A DNA stretch of 64,000 nt, taken from the NCBI GenBank assembly GCA_038245295.1, contig JBBRSP010000020.1, positions 35,765-99,764 on the forward strand, read 5' to 3'. The number at the start of each line of letters is the position of its first letter. Position 1 is the first letter of the stretch. This document shows, in pieces, positions 39,654 through 52,988 of the stretch. A model generated the notes under the pieces. It was not told the DNA's origin and did no database searches. It worked only from the letters and a program-made list of their open reading frames with translations. The stretch is from Candidatus Binatia bacterium (GTDB taxonomy: Bacteria; Desulfobacterota; Binatia; HRBIN30). The position numbers and the translations under genes are program-made.

Positions 39654-42017
39654 TCAGTACAACTCCTCGCAGCACGGCTTCGGCGCGCTGCACACGTCGA
39701 AAGAGAAAGCGCTTGGCTCGCCGCGTAGCCGGGCGGCGGCGACGACGGCCTGGCCGAGAGCGATGCCGCCGTCGTTCGGCGGGACGCGGCGGTGACGGTA
39801 CACGCGGGTCCGCTGCAAGAGTCGCGTAGACACGTCGGTGGCGAGGCGCTCGTTCTGAAAGCAGCCACCGCTTAGCACGACGGGCAAGGTCCCATACGCG
39901 GCGAGACCTACGGCGACGACGTCGTCGGCCACCGCGGCGAGCGTTGCGTGGAAGCGGCCCGACACGAGGGAAGGCCGGAGCCCGCGGACGAGATCGCCCA
40001 CGACTGCGCGGACGGCGGGCCTCAGGTCGACGACGGCGGGCGCGCCGCGCCCGGCGACCTCGATTCCGAAGTCGTAGGGGCGCGCTTCGGCGGGATCGGC
40101 GGCGAACGCGAGCCGCGTCGCGACCTCGCCTTCGTACTGCGAGACCGGCAGCGCGAGGGCGAGGGCGCCGATCGCGTCGAAGTAGCGGCCGGCCCCGTGG
40201 GCCGCCGGACAGTTCAGGCTCGCCGCGAGCATGCGGCGCACCGCGGTGATGCGCGTCGTCTCGACGTCGTCGAAGAGGCGCAGGGCCTCCAGCGGCGGGT
40301 CGCCGTCGAACGCGTCGTCGACGAGGGCGAGCGCGATGCGCCACACCTCACGGATCGCGACGTCGCCGCCCGCCAGATGAAGGGGCCTCAGCGTGGCGAG
40401 TCGACGAAAGCCTGCGTGGTCGGCGGCGAGGAGTTCGCCTCCCCAGGCCGTGCCGTCGCCGCCGTCGCCGGTCCCGTCCCACGCGAGGCCCAGCACCGGT
40501 CCTTCGAGTCCGTGTTCTGCCATCGCGGCGGCGACGTGGGCGTGGTGGTGCTGCACCGCGATGCAAGTTCGTCCTTCCTGCGAGCGCGCCCAGCGCGTCG
40601 TGAAGTAGCCGGGATGGAGGTCGTGCACGAAGACCTCCGGCGTGATGCCGACGAAGCGCGAGAAGCGTTCGACTTCCTCGTCGAATGCGGCGCAGGCCTC
40701 GTGGGTCTCGAGGTCGCCGATGTGCGGTCCCATCCATGCGAGCTGACCTGCCGCGAGGCAGAACGCATTCTTCAGGTGGGCGCCGCACGCGAGCAGGGGC
40801 TGGGGGAACGTGCGCGACATCGACACGCTGGCGGGAACCCAGCCTCGGCCACGGCGCAGGACGACCGCGTCGCCGGCGATCACGCGCGCGACCGAATCGT
40901 CGCAGCGGGCGGCGATCGCGCGGTCGTGGACTAGGAGGGCGTCGGCGATCGCGCCGCCGAGGCCGGCCAGGGCCGCGGCATCGTCCGTGAACATCGGCTC
41001 GTCGCTGAGGTTGCCCGACGTCATCACCAGCGGCGCGCCGAATGCGCGCAAGATCAACTCGTGAAGGGGCGTGTACGGCAGCAGCAGCCCGACGAGCGGG
41101 ATTCCCGGCGCGATGCCGGCGGCGAGCGGTGTGCTGGCGCGGCGTTCGACCAGCACGATGGGTGCGGCGGCGGAGACCAGCAGTTCGCGGTCGCGATCGG
41201 TGAGCGACGCGACACGCTCGGCGTCGTCGATGGATGCGACCATCACCGCGAAGGGTTTCGCGTAGCGCCGCTTGCGCGAGCGCAGGGCCGACACCGCGGC
41301 TTCGGACGAGGCGTCGCAGGCGAGGTGGTAACCGCCGAGGCCCTTGATCGCGACGACGAGGCCGCGGCGAAGAAGCTGCGCCGCCTCGAGGATGGGATCG
41401 CCGCTCCTCGCGCAGCCGTCCGCGTCGAGGAGGCTGAGGCGCGGCCCGCAGTCGGGACAGGCAACGGGCTCCGCGTGGAAGCGGCGATCCCGGACGTCCT
41501 CGTACTCGGACCGGCAGGCCTCGCACATCGGGAACGGCGCCATCGTCGTGCGCTCGCGGTCCCAGGGGACGTCGAGCGCGACCGTGTAGCGCGGTCCGCA
41601 GCGCGTGCAGTTGGTGAAGGCGTAGAGGTGGCGCCGGTTGTCGGGGTCGAGAATCTCGCGCCGGCAGTCCGGGCAGAGGGCGAGGTCCGGGGGTAGGGAC
41701 GGCTGCCTTGCGCCGCCGTCCAGGCTGGGAACGATGCAGAAGGTCTTTGGGGGCTCGTCGGGGATCGCCTCCCAGTGGAGGCCGACGATGCGAGCGGCCG
41801 GCATCGGCGGGTGTTCGAGACTGCTGAGGAATCCGCCGAGGTTCGCGTCGGCGCCGAAGGCCTCGATCGTCACGCTGCCGGTGTCGTTCCAGACCCGGCC
41901 TGTCAGTTCGCGGCCTGTCGCGAGGCGATGCACCCAAGGCCGGAAGCCGACGCCCTGGACGGATCCTTCGATCCTGATCCTGAGTCCGCCGGTCACGCGT
42001 GTGGCCTGGTCAAGCAA
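39654..42017 (-). CDS. hypF: Carbamoyltransferase HypF
   Basis: VQGVGFRP, two zinc fingers, KGLGGYHL, HDLHP, QHHHAH, PPNDGG; TTG start after GGAGGG. Confidence 0.93.
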   Translation of the reverse strand: MLDQATRVTGGLRIRIEGSVQGVGFRPWVHRLATGRELTGRVWNDTGSVTIEAFGADANLGGFLSSLEHPPMPAARIVGLHWEAIPDEPPKTFCIVPSLDGGARQPSLPPDLALCPDCRREILDPDNRRHLYAFTNCTRCGPRYTVALDVPWDRERTTMAPFPMCEACRSEYEDVRDRRFHAEPVACPDCGPRLSLLDADGCARSGDPILEAAQLLRRGLVVAIKGLGGYHLACDASSEAAVSALRSRKRRYAKPFAVMVASIDDAERVASLTDRDRELLVSAAAPIVLVERRASTPLAAGIAPGIPLVGLLLPYTPLHELILRAFGAPLVMTSGNLSDEPMFTDDAAALAGLGGAIADALLVHDRAIAARCDDSVARVIAGDAVVLRRGRGWVPASVSMSRTFPQPLLACGAHLKNAFCLAAGQLAWMGPHIGDLETHEACAAFDEEVERFSRFVGITPEVFVHDLHPGYFTTRWARSQEGRTCIAVQHHHAHVAAAMAEHGLEGPVLGLAWDGTGDGGDGTAWGGELLAADHAGFRRLATLRPLHLAGGDVAIREVWRIALALVDDAFDGDPPLEALRLFDDVETTRITAVRRMLAASLNCPAAHGAGRYFDAIGALALALPVSQYEGEVATRLAFAADPAEARPYDFGIEVAGRGAPAVVDLRPAVRAVVGDLVRGLRPSLVSGRFHATLAAVADDVVAVGLAAYGTLPVVLSGGCFQNERLATDVSTRLLQRTRVYRHRRVPPNDGGIALGQAVVAAARLRGEPSAFSFDVCSAPKPCCEELY

Positions 42018-42043
42018 GTGCGTCCCTCCGCTCTCGAGGGTGG

Positions 42044-42059
42044 AGCACGATTCAGGCCA
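42044..42059 (-). promoter_or_regulatory. Putative sigma54 (-24/-12) promoter of the hyp-hyb operon
   Basis: TGGCCTGAATCGTGCT has exact GG-N10-GC spacing, 27 nt upstream of the hypF start. Confidence 0.55.
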
Positions 42060-42228
42060 TCGATGCGTGGAACGAGAGTAGCTGCCCGGACGTGACGACG
42101 CGGCGCGCGGGCGCGCCAGGCTTCCCTGGATTTGCGCATTGCGCCGGGAATTTCCCGAGAAGATGGAATTGCCGGGGGCGCCTCGGGAGGACGGTGTGGA
42201 AGGGGTCGCAGGCGGGCGAGCGAATCTC

Positions 42229-42276
42229 CGTATTCCCCGGGACACCCATCCGCGTATTCCCCGGGACACCCATCCG
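42229..42276 (+). repeat. Perfect 24 bp tandem duplication
   Basis: CGTATTCCCCGGGACACCCATCCG x2; related motif at 61308-61323 and 30321. Confidence 0.9.
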
Positions 42277-42761: not shown

Positions 42762-44968
42762 TCACCGCTCGACGGGCATCGTGGTGTCGCCGAGTAATCG
42801 GTACGCCTTGCGAGTCGCCCAAGGTTGGGTGGACGTGAACGCCTGATCCCCAAGGGTAACCTGCTGCCGAATATCGAGACGATTTGCGTCGGGAGCTGGA
42901 ACGAGTGCTCGCCCGTTGATCAGGTATTGCAGTTGTCCATACTTCCAAAGCTTGCGGACGATCCATTTCTTGATCCCCGGGCCCGGCAAGTGGTGTGTGT
43001 AAATGTACCGGGCCCCGCTGCTGCCGATGTCGTGGCTGTCCATCCGTGCTGCCGGGATCTCGAATCGGAACCATGGAACACCGCCCTGGTACGCCAGGGC
43101 GACTACCATACCGATGGATCCCATCGTGTCGATCTCCGTCGCAGGAAGGGCGCGCGCGTGCAGCGTGTATCGATAGAGTCCGTCGCGTTATGGACACAGG
43201 TGTGCCGGGTCGCGGAACAGTGGGCCACACTGGCAGTCCACCACGTCGGCACAGTCGACGAGACCGTCGCCGTCATTGTGGTGGCTGTCGCGGTAGGGGT
43301 GCGCGTCGGTGTATCGCTGGGCGTGCGGGTTGGTGTCGCGGTCGCTGTTTTGGTCACCGTCGGCGTCGGTATAGGAGCAAGCAGCAGCCCGGCGTCGATC
43401 GTCATGTCGCGTTGTCCCGAGAATACCGTCGTCAGCGGGCTGCAACCGTCTTCGGGATCGGCGTCGCTACAACCTCTTCGTTCGGGGAATTGTGTGGAGG
43501 GCTGAAGATCTGTCCAGTCGGTGCCTTGAACTCGACCATGTATGTTCCGGGTGGGGTTTCGAAGGTGTATTCCCCGGTAACGCTCGTCGTTGTTGTGGCA
43601 ATCACGGCGTTGCTCGAACTGTAGAGAGTTACCGTTACCCCGGGAAAGCCCTCCCCCGGTTCCTGCACACCGTCGCCATCCTCATCGTGCCAGACCAGGT
43701 GGCCGATGGCCGCGTTCTGGTACAAGCCCGCGTCGATGGTGAGGTTGGTGCCCCCGGAACACAGGAGGATCAACGCGCTGCGACCGGCACTCGGATCGAT
43801 ATTGCTGTCGAGCGCATCGTTGGTGCCCCGGTGCTGCAGAGTAATGCGATACGTGGGCGGGGGAACTACCTCGACCAGGTAGTCTCCCGGGCGCAAGCCG
43901 TCGAACAGGTAGAACCCGGCAACAATGGTCGTGGTCGTTCCGACCAGGGTATTACTCCGGTCGTACAGTCGAACCGTGATGTCTCCCATTCCCGATTCGC
44001 CGGCGTCCTGAATGCCATCGCCATCGCGATCGAGCCATACGAAATCGCCCAGGTTCGCCGGCTGATACACGCCGGCATCGATCGTCCCATTGGTGGTCCC
44101 TGGGGCCAGGACGATTGTTGCCGTGCGCCCGCTCAGCGGATCGGCGTCGCTGTCGAGGCTGTCATCTGCACCGCTGTCCGGTGGGGCGAAGGAATAGCCA
44201 CCGGGGAGCACGAAGCCGATCGTGTAGGGCTCGGGTGCGACGTTGTCGAACAAGTAGAAACCCGTCCCATTGGTCGTCGTTGTCGCGATGATCCGATTGC
44301 TTGAGTCGTAGAGGTTGACCGTGACTCCGGCGAGGCCTGCCTCGCCGGGGGTCTGGAGGCCGTCGGCGTTCGCGTCGATCCATACGAGGTCTCCCAATGA
44401 GCCTGGTTTTGGCGACGGCGACGGCGTGGATGTTCGCGTGCCGGTCAGGGTCACGGTCGACGTTAGCATCGGCGTGGTGGTTGGCGTCAATGTGTTTGTG
44501 CGTGTCCGCGTTGACGTGCGGGTCGGCGTCGATGTCCGGCTGGGCGTAGCCGACGCTGTCTCGGTCGGTGTCGACGTTGCGGTCGGGGTTGACGTGTTGG
44601 TGGGCGTCTCCGCACTGGTTGGCGTGCGGCTAGTCGTTGGTGTGTTGGTTTGCGTCGACGTGAGGCTCGGCGTGGCTGATGGTGTGTCGGTTGGGGTTGA
44701 CGTTCTAGTGGGCGTTCGTGTTGGCGACAGGGCTGGCGCCTGGCTCTGTGTTGCTGTCGGTGTCAACGTTGGACAGAAGAGTGCCGTTACGTGCGTTTTC
44801 GGGAACGGCAGCGACGCCGGCGATCCCAGATAATTGGTGCAGTCGGTGCGCGAGGTCGGGAACACGTCCACCAGTTGGTTCGAGACGATCGGGTCGAGGT
44901 TGACGCGGAACGTAAGGAGGCGCGGGCGGAAACGGGCATGTGGAGCGACTGAACGCGGTTGGGAGCGT
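42762..44968 (-). pseudogene. Decayed surface protein with SdrD/Cna-B-like repeats and Thr/Pro linkers
   Basis: Three GD/H-x-VW-x-D-x-(N/D)-x-DG-x-Q repeats; frameshifts near 43440 and 43280, in-frame TAA at 43188-43190, no 5' start or signal peptide. Confidence 0.8.
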
Positions 44969-45752: not shown

Positions 45753-45794
45753 TGAGCCTGGCGGTATTGGAGCATACCACCGCTGGCTCTGCTC

Positions 45795-46265
45795 CTACTC
45801 GTGGAGTTGTTGCGCCAGATAGTGCGACTCGCCGAGTGTCTTGATCAGGTCGAGTTGTGTCTCGAGCCAATCGAGGTGCTCCTCTTCCGAAACGAGGAGC
45901 TTCTCCAATAGGTCGCGGCTACCGTTGTCACCGACTTCGACGGCGAGGGCGATGCTTTTGTTGAGCTTGGCGATGGCGGCGACCTCGAGGTCGAGATCGA
46001 GTTTGAGTTGCTCCGGCACGGTTTCCCCGATGCGGACCTTGTTCATGCGCTGCATGTTGGGAATCCCTTCCAGGAACAAGATCCGCTCGATCAACTCGTC
46101 GGCGTGTTTCATCTCGCCGATCGATTCCTTGTGGTCGATCGCCGCCAAGCGCTTGAAACCCCAATTGGCGCACATCTTGGCGTGAATGAAGTACTGGTTG
46201 ATGCCCGTAAGCTCTGCCGTCAGAATCTCGTTCAGCGCTTCGATCAGACTAGCGTTGCCTTTCAT
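45795..46265 (-). CDS. bfr: Bacterioferritin
   Basis: MKG start, ELTGINQYFIH, ESIGEMKHAD (heme Met), EEEHLDWLETQ. Confidence 0.97.
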   Translation of the reverse strand: MKGNASLIEALNEILTAELTGINQYFIHAKMCANWGFKRLAAIDHKESIGEMKHADELIERILFLEGIPNMQRMNKVRIGETVPEQLKLDLDLEVAAIAKLNKSIALAVEVGDNGSRDLLEKLLVSEEEHLDWLETQLDLIKTLGESHYLAQQLHE

Positions 46266-46288
46266 GGGATGTCCTCCTGCTGTTTCGA

Positions 46289-46510
46289 TCAGGCCGCGGC
46301 GGCTGATTCATTGACGCTCGGTTCAGAGTCCGCCGTACGATGCGCTTTCGCCGCTTCCTCGCGCAAAATCTCGCAGACCTCCCTACGACAGGGTTCACAG
46401 CACCGCGCCGCACCGGTGCGCCCCTGGATGCCGCCCAGGGTTTGCACGCCTTCGGCGACAAGGCGCCGGATGATCGTATCGCTTATGCCCCTACAATGAC
46501 AGACGATCAT
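46289..46510 (-). CDS. bfd: Bacterioferritin-associated [2Fe-2S] ferredoxin
   Basis: MIVCHC...CCEPC directly upstream of bfr. Confidence 0.9.
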   Translation of the reverse strand: MIVCHCRGISDTIIRRLVAEGVQTLGGIQGRTGAARCCEPCRREVCEILREEAAKAHRTADSEPSVNESAAAA

Positions 46511-46528
46511 TGGACGACTCCCTCCGGT

Positions 46529-48136
46529 TTAGAATCCGAACGCCGATCCGATCATGACGATGTGCGCGTTGTCCTCTCCGGACTGAGCCGGCAAGAAGTT
46601 GGTGACGTTCGACAACGACTGCCCGGCGTTGGTCTGCGTGTATTCATAAGCCAACTGGAAGGCGACGAGCGGAACCGGGCGATAGGCCATGCCAAAGGTG
46701 AAGCGATCGACGCGACGGTTCTGTGCATTGAAGTCCGTCAGTTGGGTTCCTTCGAATCCGACTTCGTCGACGAGATCGTCGAGCCACACCTGTTCGCCGC
46801 GCAGCACACCGACGAGTTGCGGATTGGCGAAGCTCCTGCCGAGGAAGGTCTCGTTTAGAATGGCCGGCCAGAAGCGGTAGCGCGCTTCGAGCCAGTAGCC
46901 GTATCGGTTACGCGCCAGGTTGGCGAGGTTGAACTCGATCTCCGAGCTCAAGCCCGGGTCGCTGCTGCCCGATGACTTGTCGACGGCATACCGGGCCAGG
47001 GACTGGGCGACCTGACGTGTCCCTTCGAAGCGCGTGAACACCCATTGCCCCTCGAGCTCGAAGGGGCCCTTGCCCGTGCGACCGTCGAGCGCCAGCGACC
47101 ACAGGTCCTGCTTGCCGAGGAAGTCTGGTGTGTATTGGCCGTAGTACCAGGAGCCGGCGATCTCGTGACCGAGTGCGGGGCTGAAGGCGAGTCTGCCGGT
47201 CACTGCCTTTGAATCCTTCACGTCGGCCGCGAAGCCGCCGGTCGACGGGGTGATTTTTACTTCCGTCAGGCTCACCGGCCTGTCGCCGTTCGCCGTCGCG
47301 CTCTGGGTCACCGTTTCGATCTCGGTATCGAGAGCGACGCCGTTGACGACGTAGATCTGGTAGCCGAGATCGGCGTCGTCGGTGAGGTGAATGTCGCCGA
47401 GGAATCCCATTCCCAGTTCGTCCCATGCCGCGGTGGATGGCAACACCGAGACCCCGCGATCGACAAGCGATCGGCGCGGCAGGTCCCAGCGGTTGTCGTC
47501 GTGGTTGATGTTGAAGCGACCGAGCGGGACCAGGACGGCGCCGCCGCGATACTTCAACCAGTCGGCAATATCGTACTGCATCCATGCCTGTTCGAGGGAG
47601 ATCTCCGAATTGTTGGTGCTCTCGATACCAATCTCCGATTTGACGCCGCCGTCGGACGACCGCAGCGTCTTCTCGACCTCCAGTTTGCGGAACCGTTCAA
47701 ACTCGAGCTCGACGTACGAGTGCAGGCGCGGGGCGATGTTGGCGTCGACGGTCAAGACGAGGCGGCGCAGAGTGAAGGTATGTTTCTGTTCCTTGAGCGA
47801 CGAACCTTCATAACGCATCGAGCCGTAGCCACCGAGTTTGACGCGATCGACAACCTCGCGACCAAACTGCGTCACCGCGTTGGTTGCCGCCGGCGGGTTC
47901 GCCACCGGGCTGACACTCGGTTGTGCCGCCACCACGGGCGCGGCGGCGGGCGTCGGCGCCGGTGCTGCAACGGTGGCCGGCGCGGATTCCTTTTGCTTGC
48001 GTAGCTCTTGCTTGAGCTCTTGGATCTCACGCTCCATGCGCTCGAGCTTTACCTCCAGCGGCTCTTTCGCCGCCGCCACGCAAGGCATGGCTATAAGTGC
48101 CGCCAACACGGCGGAACCGAAATTCATTCGCTTCAT
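46529..48136 (-). CDS. Outer-membrane beta-barrel / porin with N-terminal coiled coil
   Basis: Signal peptide, coiled coil, Pro/Ala linker, KLGGYG, ELEFE, LEQAW, alternating beta-strands, terminal Phe; GAGGAGG site. Confidence 0.8.
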   Translation of the reverse strand: MKRMNFGSAVLAALIAMPCVAAAKEPLEVKLERMEREIQELKQELRKQKESAPATVAAPAPTPAAAPVVAAQPSVSPVANPPAATNAVTQFGREVVDRVKLGGYGSMRYEGSSLKEQKHTFTLRRLVLTVDANIAPRLHSYVELEFERFRKLEVEKTLRSSDGGVKSEIGIESTNNSEISLEQAWMQYDIADWLKYRGGAVLVPLGRFNINHDDNRWDLPRRSLVDRGVSVLPSTAAWDELGMGFLGDIHLTDDADLGYQIYVVNGVALDTEIETVTQSATANGDRPVSLTEVKITPSTGGFAADVKDSKAVTGRLAFSPALGHEIAGSWYYGQYTPDFLGKQDLWSLALDGRTGKGPFELEGQWVFTRFEGTRQVAQSLARYAVDKSSGSSDPGLSSEIEFNLANLARNRYGYWLEARYRFWPAILNETFLGRSFANPQLVGVLRGEQVWLDDLVDEVGFEGTQLTDFNAQNRRVDRFTFGMAYRPVPLVAFQLAYEYTQTNAGQSLSNVTNFLPAQSGEDNAHIVMIGSAFGF

Positions 48137-48186
48137 CGGAATCGCCTCCTCGACTATTGAGAAAAAATTGGTCTCGACCTCATGGA

Positions 48187-48702
48187 TCACTCCGGCGGGA
48201 AATCACGCCGCGGGCTGGCGAACCACATCTCGCCGATCGGCACGACGATGTAGGCGCCAAACCCAAGCCACTCGGCGATCCATGCGAACAATAGGCCCCA
48301 GGAGAATGCGGCTGAGGCGTAACGGATCAGCCACGGCATGATCAGATCGAGTGCCAATCCAACCATGCCGAGGATCAGAAAAAATCGCTTCCAGAACGCG
48401 TCCAGCGTGCTGGCGACGAAAAGATGCGCCAGGACGAGATACACGACACCCATGATGAAGGCGTGGAAATGTGTGCCCTCGACAAGTTGGCGAAATGTCT
48501 TTTCGAAGGTCATCTCGGCGCCGAGCTCACCGCCACGATAGAACGCTGCGATACGCGTTGGGGTCAGCCCGATGTGACCGATCTGAAAGGCGCCCGACGT
48601 CGCCATACCGATGGCGACGAACAACAAGAATGCCGTGTAGATGAGACGAATCTCGAGGCGCGCGTATCGCAGCAGATAGCTATTCCCGGCAAAGGCTTTC
48701 AC
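48187..48702 (-). CDS. Small multi-pass membrane protein with His cluster (function unknown)
   Basis: GTG start overlaps apbE stop, AAGGAG site; about 4 hydrophobic helices; THFHAFIMGVVYLVLAHLF. Confidence 0.75.
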   Translation of the reverse strand: MKAFAGNSYLLRYARLEIRLIYTAFLLFVAIGMATSGAFQIGHIGLTPTRIAAFYRGGELGAEMTFEKTFRQLVEGTHFHAFIMGVVYLVLAHLFVASTLDAFWKRFFLILGMVGLALDLIMPWLIRYASAAFSWGLLFAWIAEWLGFGAYIVVPIGEMWFASPRRDFPPE

Positions 48703-49703
48703 AGCAGCGGCTCCTTGATCTGCGTGTGCGCGTTGTCGGCGCGGAACGTGACGCGGCCGAGCCTGGTCCAACCCTTTGTAGAGGCAATGATAGCCCCCTC
48801 GAGCAGGGGGGCGGCGGCGATTGTTGCGTGGCCCGTGCGCGACTGTTCGATCAGTAGAGCCTTCGAATAGGCTTCCGCGTCGGTGGCGTTGTTGGCAACC
48901 ACGACCGCCAGCGCCGCGGCTCGCAGCGGCAGGCCATCGCGTGGATCAATGATGTGTCCAACTCGCCGCGCCGCGATGCGATGTTCGTGACCGAATACGC
49001 TGGATACCGAGAGTGCCTGATTGCACAGGGTGAGGGTCCCGAGCCGCCGCGCTGAGTCGAGGCTGCGCAGCGATAGTCGCCAACCCGATGCCCCCGCCGG
49101 AGCGCCCATGGCGAAGACGCTGCTTTCACCGAGGTTCAGCAAGGCGCGATTGATTCCGCTGCGACGCAGGATGTCGACGCAGGTGTCGATGGCGTAGCCC
49201 TTGGCGATACCGTCGAAGTCGTAGATCTCGCCGGTCCCACGGCGGATGATGTGATCACCGATCATCGGTGCACCGGTAGCTGAGGGCAGCGCGGCGCTGA
49301 CCGTTGCCGGTGCCGGCCAGGTGGAAGCTGCTCTCCAGATCTGGCTCAAACGTCCGATGCGGGCGTCGAAACGGCCGCCGGTCTGCTGTGTCAGCGCGAG
49401 GGATCGACTCAGAAGGTCCTGCATCTCCGAGCTGATGGCGACCGACGGCGACTCGGCGGCGTTGAGATGATTGAGCTCACTGTCCGGATCGTAGCGCGAA
49501 AAATGCGACTCCAGGGCGCGCGCCCGTTGAAAACACTGGCGCATCGCCGCGCGTGCCGATACGGGGGCGCCGTGTTCGGCGGTGATCGAGAAGTAGGTGC
49601 CCATCACGTAGTGCACTTCGGTCAGCTGCTCGGCGTCCAGCGGCCTTGCGGCGCAGGCGAAGAATACGCCGCTGAGTAACAGGCGATGGAGCGGTCGACT
49701 CAT
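48699..49703 (-). CDS. apbE: FAD:protein FMN transferase
   Basis: VMGT, SRYDPDSEL, GRFD, DFDGIAKGYAID, HIIDPRDG, DAEAYSKA. Confidence 0.9.
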   Translation of the reverse strand: MSRPLHRLLLSGVFFACAARPLDAEQLTEVHYVMGTYFSITAEHGAPVSARAAMRQCFQRARALESHFSRYDPDSELNHLNAAESPSVAISSEMQDLLSRSLALTQQTGGRFDARIGRLSQIWRAASTWPAPATVSAALPSATGAPMIGDHIIRRGTGEIYDFDGIAKGYAIDTCVDILRRSGINRALLNLGESSVFAMGAPAGASGWRLSLRSLDSARRLGTLTLCNQALSVSSVFGHEHRIAARRVGHIIDPRDGLPLRAAALAVVVANNATDAEAYSKALLIEQSRTGHATIAAAPLLEGAIIASTKGWTRLGRVTFRADNAHTQIKEPLL

Positions 49704-50335
49704 TTGTCACCCGCCGCAGGAGCGCTCGGCGCCGCCGTCGTCGCGGTGGCGACGGCGAGAGCTTTCTTCACGGCACGGCTGGCGGCGTCGACGGACAGAG
49801 TCGCCCCGGCGATGTTCTGGATATCCCCCGGCGCTTTCAACGAGTTTGTCTTGTCCTTGTCGCGATACTGCTTGAGGAAGCGCGGCGCGCGGATCTCGCC
49901 GCCGTAGGCCTCGCGGTAGGCCATGACGGCGACATCGCTGATGCTGCCGTCGTTGCGCACGCCGACGATGAACGTGATGGGCCGGTGTTTGCCGATCTCC
50001 TCGACAACGACCGCGCTGCCGATTGGCTGGCCGTCGTGGCTCGCCGCAAAGACGACATACGACTCCTCCCACACGGAGGGTTCCTCGGGCTGCAGGCGCT
50101 CACGAATGCTTTGGCGCAATTCGGCCGATGCCTGAACCACGGAGCGAATGAAGGTTGCCTCGGGAAATACCGCATGCGGCGCGTCCTCTTCGCTGAGAAA
50201 AACACCTTCCTGCGCGTGGACGCCGCGCGCTAGCGACAGGCACAGCACGCCGAGCAGCGCGAGCAGCCACACGACTACGGGCCGTCGTCGTGTCATGGCG
50301 ATGGTGCCGGATGAATCTACTCCTGAGCGCTGCAT
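49700..50335 (-). CDS. Exported FMN-binding (flavinylation substrate) protein
   Basis: Signal peptide; IGKHRPIT, YREAYGGEI, FLKQY, IQNIAGATLS. Alternative start at 50296. Confidence 0.88.
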   Translation of the reverse strand: MQRSGVDSSGTIAMTRRRPVVVWLLALLGVLCLSLARGVHAQEGVFLSEEDAPHAVFPEATFIRSVVQASAELRQSIRERLQPEEPSVWEESYVVFAASHDGQPIGSAVVVEEIGKHRPITFIVGVRNDGSISDVAVMAYREAYGGEIRAPRFLKQYRDKDKTNSLKAPGDIQNIAGATLSVDAASRAVKKALAVATATTAAPSAPAAGDK

Positions 50336-50369
50336 TCTGCGGCTTTCCTCGTGGGGGCGTTTACGACGT

Positions 50370-52664
50370 TTAGTGGCCGCTGCCCGCGGGGGCGGTATGT
50401 TCAACGCGATGGAGGATTTGCTCAACCCGTGTGACCAAAGCCGCCACGGCAGTAGAGCTCTGCGATGAGCCGCTGCGGGTCAGCTCGCTGCTCAAACCGT
50501 CGCAAGCGCTGCGCAGTGCGCGTAACTCACCCACCAGGCTGTCGTCGACGATTGGCGGCGCCACGGCGCGGCTGCGTTGCCACGAAATGTAGCTGGCGAA
50601 GAGAAGCAGGACGACGAAGAGCATCTGTGCCGCCAATGTTTCCACGGAAGGGAAGATGCCAAGCAGGGGTAGCGTCGGAGCCCAACTGACCGGCGTCGAG
50701 GAGATGAGGGTTGCCTCCTGCAATTCGTGCACTCCCTGGCCGGCGAAGATGGCTGCCATGCTGTAGAGGAAGATGCCGGTAAACAGGAAGAACTGTTGCA
50801 TCGGAATACGAACCTGGAAGCGGCGCATCAATGTGTAGACGATGGTCAGCGCGACCGTGCCGGCGCCGAGGCCGATGGTGATGGTCACTCCCGCGGCTGG
50901 AGCGCTGGCGTAAAGGGCTTGATAGAACAGCACGGTCTCGAAACCTTCGCGGTAGACGGCAAGAAACGCGGCGCCGGCCAGCGCCAGGGAGCTGCCCTGG
51001 CCGACGGCCGATGTCACTTTGCCGCGAATATACTGGTGCCAGCGGTCGGCTTCGGCCTTCGAGATCAGCCAGTAGCTGACCCAGAACAATACGACCGCGG
51101 CCAGCAACATCGTTGCCCCTTCGAGCAACGGCCCGGAGCCGGGGTAGGCGGCGCGAATTTCGACCATCGCGAAAGCCGTGACAATACTCATCACGATGCC
51201 GCCAACGACGCCGGCGTGAATGCCACGGCGCAGCGCGGTACCTCCTGTCTTGATCACCCACGACATGAGAGCGCTGATGACCAGGACCATCTCGAAGCCT
51301 TCCCGCAAGATGATTCCCGCCGATTGCAGAAACAATCCCGAGGCGCTGGCCTGCGGTTGTAGCGCGACGCGGACAGCCTGGAAGTCGTCCTTGATCGCGG
51401 CCGCGGCCGCTGTCACAGCCGCGTCGTTGCCGGCTGCTTTGACGCCTTGTCGCAGCTTGAGGAAGTGTTCTTCGACGTTTGTTTTCAACGTTGCGTCGAC
51501 GGCGCCGAGTTTCGGTTCGATGGGTTCGAATTCGAAGTAGCCGTCCGACGCGAAGCCGGCGGCCGCGTTGTCGCCATGCTGATAGGCCGCCACCGTCTGG
51601 TCGACGAGCCGGAGGCTCGCCGCGAGGGCTGTCTCAGTGTCCGATCCCTTGGTCTCGGGCTTGTTCGGTGGAGTGCCGGCATCGTTGTTGGTCGAGTCGT
51701 TCGGACCTCCCGGACCACCCATCGACAGCAGTCGCAGGAAACCAACCGCCTTCCAGCGCTCGTCATCGCTGAGCGTCCGCGCAAACGACGGCATCGGAGT
51801 TCCCGCCAAGCCGTGCGTCGCGATGTCGAACAACTGGGCGTCGGCCTGCTTGGCCAATGTCTGTGGCTTACTGAGGTCGGGGGCCGGTTTGGTGAGCACC
51901 GCCGTGTAGGCGCCCTGGCCGTTGCCGGTGGCGCCGTGGCAGTTGGCGCATTGCGACAGGTAGATGCCTTGGCCTTCGGCGATGCCTGCGGTGCCGTGCG
52001 ACAACGTCCAGATGTGACTGAGCAGATCCCAGCGCTGGTCCAGGCTGAGTGAATCACCCCAGGAGGGCATCGCCGTCTTACTCTTGCCGAGGGTGATGAC
52101 GTGGAAGAAGTCGTAGGGCGTCTCGCCGCGGATGAACTTGGCGTCGGCCAGGTTGGCCGGTTTCGGATTGAGCGTGGCGGCATCGGGTCCGGTGCCGTCA
52201 CCGTCGGGCCCGTGACAGCGGGCGCAATTCTCGAGGAAGAGCTGTCGTCCGCGGGCGGCCGACGGGGCAGAGGTGGGGAAGAGTTGTTCTTCGATGCCGG
52301 TGATACGCGAAACGCCGGCGCGCAAGCTCAGCGCTTCGGCGGCCACCTGGTCTACCTCACCAAGGGCGTTGATCTTGTTCGCCAGGGACTCGAATTGGGG
52401 CTCGAGGTCGTGGATGGAGAGATTGTTCTCAGAGGCGACTTGTTTCAGGGTGGCCTTGGCTTCGTCGAGGCAGGTCTTGGCTTCTTCGAGCTCGATCGGG
52501 CGCACGACCCGGCCGCCCTCGACTCCTTCGCGGTAATCTTCTCCCACCGCGCCCAACAGCGTGAGGATCCGCTGCACCCGCACTTCATGCGCCGGTGCCA
52601 GCGCGCCCGCCGGGCTGGCCAGCGCGACTGTGAGAGCCAACAGAGGAATCAAGTCTTTTCGCAT
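50370..52664 (-). CDS. Diheme cytochrome c - FTR1 iron permease fusion
   Basis: Signal peptide; CARCH and CANCH each followed by an MPS motif; two REGFE motifs in a multi-TM domain. Confidence 0.92.
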   Translation of the reverse strand: MRKDLIPLLALTVALASPAGALAPAHEVRVQRILTLLGAVGEDYREGVEGGRVVRPIELEEAKTCLDEAKATLKQVASENNLSIHDLEPQFESLANKINALGEVDQVAAEALSLRAGVSRITGIEEQLFPTSAPSAARGRQLFLENCARCHGPDGDGTGPDAATLNPKPANLADAKFIRGETPYDFFHVITLGKSKTAMPSWGDSLSLDQRWDLLSHIWTLSHGTAGIAEGQGIYLSQCANCHGATGNGQGAYTAVLTKPAPDLSKPQTLAKQADAQLFDIATHGLAGTPMPSFARTLSDDERWKAVGFLRLLSMGGPGGPNDSTNNDAGTPPNKPETKGSDTETALAASLRLVDQTVAAYQHGDNAAAGFASDGYFEFEPIEPKLGAVDATLKTNVEEHFLKLRQGVKAAGNDAAVTAAAAAIKDDFQAVRVALQPQASASGLFLQSAGIILREGFEMVLVISALMSWVIKTGGTALRRGIHAGVVGGIVMSIVTAFAMVEIRAAYPGSGPLLEGATMLLAAVVLFWVSYWLISKAEADRWHQYIRGKVTSAVGQGSSLALAGAAFLAVYREGFETVLFYQALYASAPAAGVTITIGLGAGTVALTIVYTLMRRFQVRIPMQQFFLFTGIFLYSMAAIFAGQGVHELQEATLISSTPVSWAPTLPLLGIFPSVETLAAQMLFVVLLLFASYISWQRSRAVAPPIVDDSLVGELRALRSACDGLSSELTRSGSSQSSTAVAALVTRVEQILHRVEHTAPAGSGH

Positions 52665-52682
52665 CGCGTCGTTTCCTCGATT

Positions 52683-52699
52683 TTGAAACTCATTATCAA
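52683..52699. promoter_or_regulatory. Fur-box-like palindrome
   Basis: TTGAAACTCATTATCAA: 2 mismatches to the 7-1-7 TGATAATnATTATCA, lying between a minus-strand TTGACA (52720-52725) and the start codon. Confidence 0.7.
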
Positions 52700-52780
52700 C
52701 TAGACCATGCACTTCGGTGTGTCAAATGGTCCCGTTGGCTATCGCGGATGCAGGTGGACGGCGCTGTGACGCAGGTCACT

Positions 52781-52988
52781 CATTTGGCCATCTGGGCATT
52801 TAGCCATCTGGCCAGTTTTTCATCGGGCCATCTGGTTAGCAGTCTGTTGAAACAGTCCGATTCTCAGATTTACCCATCCTGGAGCCCTTGTCCCAAAAGA
52901 GCTCCAGAAAGCAAGTCTGCCCACATCAGGTTTTTTTAACGCGGACTGTTAAACGGCCAAATGGCCAAACGGAAAAATGACCAAGTGG
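52781..52988. repeat. Inverted arrays of 8 nt units with a nested MITE-like insertion (52837-52951)
   Basis: Seven CATYTGGC-like units on the left, complementary units on the right; the insert starts TAGCAGTCTGTTGAAA and ends TTTTAACGCGGACTGTTA. Confidence 0.65.

Follow-up and report, generated by a model that had tools for sequence, protein, structure and literature searches.

A four-gene ApbE-linked cluster with a PF27139 membrane partner and a predicted dedicated porin in a Binatia bacterium

The DNA analysed here (the window) is a stretch of 64,000 nucleotides from contig JBBRSP010000020.1 of Candidatus Binatia bacterium (assembly GCA_038245295.1). The open reading frame (ORF) listing, together with Pfam and NCBIfam searches, identified a run of seven ORFs on the minus strand (45795..52664). 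All seven genes claimed by an earlier note on this DNA are thus present and co-oriented. Four of them form a conserved core. They encode a predicted outer-membrane porin, an exported FMN_bind protein (FMN, flavin mononucleotide), the flavin transferase ApbE and a four-helix inner-membrane protein of the Pfam family PF27139 (Aq_1264_TM). This core is a variant of the ApbE-linked iron-assimilation clusters that Méheust et al. described (2021, PMC8238504); its membrane partner is new, and a dedicated porin belongs to it. The value of the locus lies in the core and its membrane protein family and not in the seven-gene arrangement.

The locus set included 40 of the 90 matches to the membrane protein found in the class and 80 of 575 loci from a genome collection. 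Removal of 4 duplicates left 116 loci, of which 83 have at least 6 kb of flank on each side and represent the fully flanked, non-redundant set. All four core genes lie on the same strand in 78 of these 83 loci. FTR1 and bfd were found in 6 loci each and bfr in 4. The conserved unit is therefore the four-gene core rather than the seven genes proposed earlier as one system: synteny is kept for the core, and FTR1 and bfd/bfr are separable modules also found without it, in many cases with a separate Fur box. The core is present in 36 of the 40 hand-picked class loci as well and is arranged in at least four different gene orders. It is common in little-studied lineages: the PF27139 protein was found in 88 of the 151 class genomes, 575 species-level genome loci match the patterns of one subgroup, and there are at least 3,872 protein clusters. 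Five loci titled Enterobacteriaceae or Klebsiella (L092, L098, L101, L108 and L149) resemble Binatia loci and are probably mislabelled assemblies.

ApbE-linked iron-assimilation clusters include PepSY-like (FoxB/VciB), MsrQ-like, Nqr/Rnf-like and DsbD/DUF3570 types, and clusters with these other membrane partners have been linked to iron reduction (PMC8238504). The present locus resembles them in associating ApbE, an exported substrate and a membrane protein beside iron transporters. It also carries a Fur-type box, Fur control having been reported for the PepSY-like clusters (PMC8238504). It differs from the published classes in its membrane partner, in an xG[AS]TL flavin acceptor with His or Gln instead of Asp, and in the dedicated porin of its core (the word porin does not occur in the main text of PMC8238504). 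As claimed earlier, the locus holds no known ApbE partner: no match was obtained to the defining genes of the P19, PepSY-like, MsrQ-like, NapH-like, DsbD, Nqr/Rnf-like and DUF4405 types. An FTR1 permease associated with an FMN_bind protein is shared with the P19–FTR1 clusters, among them bfeUO-sifABCDE of B. breve, which are induced by iron limitation (PMC8238504, PMC5449479). However, the present genome has no P19, the locus has no ABC or FtsX genes, its FTR1 carries a dihaem motif, and both the porin and PF27139 are present. The pairing of FTR1 with FMN_bind is not a new idea, since P19-linked FTR1/FMN_bind clusters and cytochrome-linked ILT/PbrT-type permeases were already known (PMC8238504). 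The small conserved-His membrane protein beside apbE recalls DUF4405 and FezC cytochromes b, the FezC/MsrQ-like cytochromes being modelled as His-ligated homodimers (Huang et al. 2024, 10.1101/2024.03.13.584918). Unlike these, the 73 homologues examined show no matching Pfam model, the ExxHxH-x12-H pattern lies on one helix and the haem is putative. About half of ApbE-encoding genomes have no characterised partner system (10.1101/2024.03.13.584918), a gap which the core would partly fill with its membrane partner and porin. No description of the core was found in the open-access literature, in agreement with the earlier note, to which no characterisation of the combination was known; Supplementary file 1 of PMC8238504 may list such loci unlabelled.

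The iron link is carried by a predicted Fur operator (52679..52697) located 15 nucleotides 5' of the FTR1 start codon. Boxes were scored against a 19-position Fur consensus, with a threshold of at least 13/19. This one, the Fur-like box reported earlier, matches 15 of the 19 positions, the highest score in the window and tied for highest across the 6.6-Mb genome. Relatives carry a near-identical box 5' of the same FTR1 gene. Of the 108 loci for which upstream sequence was available, 94 have a box at or above the threshold ahead of the leading core or FTR1 gene (for some of the box-less loci the script picked the wrong first gene); the threshold is reached in 11 of 540 shuffled sequences and in 3 of this genome's 296 upstream control regions. 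The loci being related, this count reflects conservation and not independent trials. A Fur homologue is encoded in this genome, and a fur gene lies nearby in 25 of the 83 fully flanked loci. The conserved box and adjacent fur genes support assignment of the operon to iron-linked regulation, as the earlier note had it, and we infer that Fur represses it. Several short TGGCCA/GATGGC repeats occur upstream of the box (intergenic region 52720-52970).

We propose that the operon takes up iron reductively and is induced when iron runs short, a reading to which we give even weight for and against. Iron starvation would lift Fur repression, and the acidic porin would pass Fe(III) or small Fe chelates. 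ApbE would attach FMN to Thr166 of the FMN_bind protein. The PF27139 protein would carry electrons from the quinol pool to this FMN, probably via haem b or a metal site of H78, H80 and H93, and perhaps as a homodimer, one chain having no second His-bearing helix. The flavinylated periplasmic protein would then reduce ferric iron in the cell envelope, and Fe(II) would enter by the available importer, FeoB elsewhere and FTR1 here. In yeast, Fet3 re-oxidises iron for Ftr1; by analogy, the two FTR1 haems may re-oxidise iron at the pore. Bfd and Bfr would be an appended, ordinary pair for iron storage and release. Such a core would explain how these bacteria get ferric iron to Fe(II) importers.

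The predicted exported beta-barrel porin (46529..48136, minus strand, 535 residues) has an N-terminal coiled coil, a C-terminal Phe and an invariant acidic ExExE motif (invariant acidic residues E143, E145, E147 and E182). Its earlier label as a porin stands on the evidence of its homologues: its ESM Atlas neighbours are Porin_O_P clusters, 7-8 of 30 homologues match Porin_O_P/BBP2/OMP_b-brl, and the terminal Phe is kept in 95 of 97. The window protein itself has no Pfam match; its single-sequence model is uninformative (pLDDT, the predicted local distance difference test, of 32.5), and a PDB sequence search gave weak terminal-strand matches to OmpX/Ail and nothing significant besides. The FMN_bind protein (49700..50296, minus strand, 198 residues, alternative start at 50335) scores above the PF04205 cut-off (E 1e-10) and has a hydrophobic N-terminus. 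Its predicted FMN acceptor, Thr166, lies in IAGATLS, and all 113 homologues have G-[AS]-T-L at this site. ApbE (48699..49703, minus strand, 334 residues, PF02424 E 1e-47) carries a His250 in GHIIDPR that is kept in 96 of 113 homologues. Covalent flavinylation of the FMN_bind protein at Thr166 by ApbE appears likely. The [S/T]GA[S/T] acceptor motif cited earlier does not apply as such, the window motif being AGAT.

In 25 of the 83 core loci, a small ORF of 70-80 residues with CxCG...CRRC motifs lies directly before the porin gene (for example L100:5706-5915:+, L172:3217-3441:- and L173:8689-8928:+). It has no Pfam match, is absent from the window and is possibly a regulator or metal sensor. FMN_bind and ApbE are fused in one ORF in genomes of family f5 (L041:2235-3815:-, L042:3992-5554:+ and L045).

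FTR1 is encoded as a 764-residue fusion of a dihaem cytochrome c with an ILT-type permease (50370..52664, minus strand; PF03239 E 5e-34, two cytochrome c domains), an accessory to the core. It shows a signal-like N-terminus, helical periplasmic domains, two CxxCH motifs (CARCH and CANCH) and two RExxE motifs (both REGFE). Permeases of the PbrT/PA5248 type carry a cytochrome c domain with a c-haem motif too; unlike them, the window FTR1 has two CxxCH and stands ahead of a flavinylation core. It shares with these ILT-family permeases an FTR1-family permease with a periplasmic extension (PMC2573884). The internal helical repeat of ~100-130 residues seen in many relatives (L173, L178, L180, L181, L183) is missing from the window fusion.

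This genome (G000, 96.6% complete) gave no match to FeoB, P19 (PF10634) or RnfD/NqrB (PF03116) in profile searches, which identified a single gene each for ApbE, FMN_bind and FTR1 and seven TonB-dependent receptors. Among the 88 core-bearing genomes, 35 have FTR1 only, 43 FeoB only, 7 both and 3 neither, so that 85 have one or the other; the corresponding numbers for the 63 genomes without the core are 41, 10, 2 and 10. Because 43 of the 88 have FeoB without FTR1, Fe(II) is favoured as the product of the core. A FeoB gene adjoins the core in L182. In this class sample FeoB and FTR1 nearly exclude each other, with 9 genomes holding both against ~35 expected. From the first 5 relatives (5/5 with FeoB, 0/5 with FTR1) and the tree, G000 alone had seemed to have swapped FeoB for FTR1; this was dropped when 9 of 18 family relatives were found to carry the FTR1 fusion, 8 of those with FeoB as well.

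The two accessory genes at the distal end encode the bacterioferritin-associated ferredoxin Bfd (46289..46510, minus strand, 73 residues, PF04324 E 8e-10) and the bacterioferritin Bfr (45795..46265, minus strand, 156 residues, TIGR00754, 212 bits, above cut-off). The same gene pair in the same order is found in E. coli and P. aeruginosa; unlike there, the window pair is appended 18 nucleotides after the porin gene and has no box of its own.

The seven genes may be no more than a regulon cluster, in which independent Fur-controlled modules (the FTR1 fusion, the core and bfd-bfr) were gathered at one site without direct contact between their products. For the seven-gene arrangement we consider this quite plausible, at slightly under an even chance, and it is compatible with the reductive reading of the core. 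Twenty loci chosen from close relatives bear on it. Each module is found alone: the FTR1 fusion is coreless in L183, L184, L185 and L187, and bfd-bfr has a Fur-type box of its own in L174, L182, L183, L184 and L187. Moreover, two distant core clades (at most ~30% identity) alternate within the family at one chromosomal site beside GNAT and TPR genes. On the other side, the full set has been assembled with both core clades, in the window and L181 (where two genes are inserted) and, in a different order with the other clade, in L178. The order FTR1 fusion, FMN_bind, ApbE, membrane protein, porin recurs in L171, L172, L173, L180 and L181. The junctions in the window are tight: with the likeliest starts they measure, from FTR1 to bfr, 73, -4, -4, 50, 18 and 23 nucleotides. 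The limit of 50 nucleotides given in the earlier note thus holds at five of the six junctions and is exceeded between FTR1 and FMN_bind, unless an alternative ATG is used there (34 nucleotides). The single chain of membrane protein, FMN and haem c that it envisaged is not required, since the haem c–FTR1 gene is absent from most core loci.

Other proteins were observed around these modules in relatives. After the coreless fusion at L183:4583-6214 come an exported protein of a different kind and a cupredoxin. In L181, which has all seven genes, a CCP_MauG-type dihaem protein (L181:12100-13764:+) lies between the porin gene and bfd. Finally, a protein of ~210 residues with ExxH-like motifs, ferritin/rubrerythrin-like by eye and with no Pfam match, recurs beside bfd-bfr and FeoB (L174:4131-4766:-, L182:12552-13175:-, L183:3838-4470:+).

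The fourth core product, the membrane protein (48187..48702, minus strand, 171 residues, GTG start), is central to the proposed electron path. Contrary to the earlier description, it is not His-rich: it has 4 His in its 171 residues, of which three are conserved together with one Glu. Among 73 diverse homologues H78 is kept in 73, H80 in 72, H93 in 60 and E75 in 55. AlphaFold models it as a bundle of four helices (pLDDT 88.7). If the helix is taken as ideal, H78 and H93 share a face ~22 Å apart and H80 lies on the opposite face, so two haems would need a partner chain. Neither the window protein nor its 73 homologues matched DUF4405, PepSY or ferric-reductase Pfam models (E 0.1), and PDB sequence searches with this protein and with FMN_bind gave nothing significant. 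The best structural matches (Z 8.8) were unrelated generic helical bundles and no Foldseek match was obtained at E 0.001, an outcome from which neither a new nor a different fold can be concluded.

Among 251 genomes searched in another phylum, 77 had a match; together with one class locus, this search provided 11 loci with paralogues of this protein (HHalign probability 99.5). In 10 of the 11 loci a CxxCH domain is inserted in the loop that follows helix 1; the eleventh ORF appears broken or mis-started. These genes (L047, L159-L164, L166-L168, e.g. L164:6025-6744:+) stand alone in varied gene contexts, with no ApbE, FMN_bind or porin neighbour in any of the 11 loci, and they keep the HxH. The CxxCH domain of these paralogues, together with the absence of ApbE neighbours, suggests that the PF27139 fold does redox work with a periplasmic carrier, and is the strongest indirect sign of such a role.

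The membrane protein might instead have no redox role, delivering flavin adenine dinucleotide (FAD) to ApbE, anchoring ApbE, or binding or transporting a metal through E75, H78 and H80, with electrons reaching the flavoprotein from elsewhere. Full-length fusions of the membrane protein with ApbE (P0155, P0229) and the overlap of its gene with apbE in most gene orders are consistent with this, as are the lack of a match to any haem b protein and the position of the three His on a single helix. The fusions fit the reductive reading as well. The paralogues speak against a non-redox role, as they combine the HxH with a CxxCH domain with no apbE gene in their vicinity; in the larger clade, the tightest neighbour of the membrane-protein gene is FMN_bind. 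We regard a non-redox role as unlikely.

The same paralogues bear on an iron-sparing explanation, in which a flavin-based periplasmic carrier replaces a haem-based one under iron starvation, under Fur control and with no action on iron, much as flavodoxin replaces ferredoxin. In agreement with it, the flavin form has a Fur-type box in the 94 of 108 loci given above, compared with none of 10 haem c paralogues (none reaches 12/19), and two genomes (G124 and G152) hold both forms. Iron-sparing logic is also discussed in PMC8238504. Nevertheless, 78 of the 83 loci include a dedicated porin, and this, with the FTR1, FeoB, bfd or bfr neighbours, speaks for the import of a substrate. Within the class, the haem form also occurs far less often than the flavin form. 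We regard iron sparing as unlikely. An oxidative direction of the kind proposed for FtrABCD or P19/FetP systems, in which porin-entered Fe(II) would be oxidised for FTR1 with electrons passing from haem c through FMN and the membrane protein to quinone, is a little less likely still: the FTR1 fusion directly before FMN_bind in the window clade, an acidic porin suited to Fe(II) and the cupredoxin after the coreless fusion of L183 would fit, but oxidation would be useless in the 43 of 88 core-bearing genomes that have FeoB without FTR1, and FMN carriers of the RnfG/NqrC type have low redox potentials.

The reductive reading of the operon has its own difficulties, to which the relatedness of the loci contributes. 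H78 and H80 lie on opposing faces of their helix, and the haem c paralogues lack H93. Neither Pfam nor structural comparison matches the membrane protein to a known cytochrome b, and a partner that binds NAD(P)H or quinone is not encoded. The published acceptor motif is D-x-x-[S/T]-G-A-[S/T] (PMC12052999). In the FMN_bind homologues the canonical Asp is missing, the -6 position being His in 78 of 113 and Gln in the window (QNIAGAT), and the -3 position is Ser or Thr in just 23 of 113; in one published test, however, the effects of Asp-to-Ala were minor (PMC12052999). The near-exclusion of FeoB and FTR1 fails in the 18 family relatives, where 16 have FeoB, 9 the FTR1 fusion and 8 both. Since FTR1 also occurs in the coreless loci listed above and in coreless genomes (FTR1 only in 41 of 63), the core and FTR1 need not interact.

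A broader version of the reductive reading would treat PF27139 as a membrane redox protein of a new class, joining either a fused haem c domain, not Fur-controlled, or a separate flavinylated partner under Fur control. The operon would then assemble, at a single bacterial locus, a full equivalent of the reductive pathway of yeast, with porin entry, flavin reduction, haem re-oxidation at FTR1 and storage. We hold this version to be tentative and rather doubtful.

The remaining features lie around the operon. Scans gave no Rfam match and called no sigma-70 promoter, and there was no plasmid match. A stable hairpin (45754..45789, minus strand; z -3.5, with 2 of 200 shuffles equally good) lies between the convergent stops of bfr and a dienelactone hydrolase gene; it has no U-tail and was not called by the terminator scan, and it is possibly the transcript end. 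Further downstream are genes for a Thr/Pro-rich protein with three SdrD B-like domains (43432-44871, minus strand) and for HypF (39654-42269, minus strand), and a low GC-skew step occurs near position 42000.

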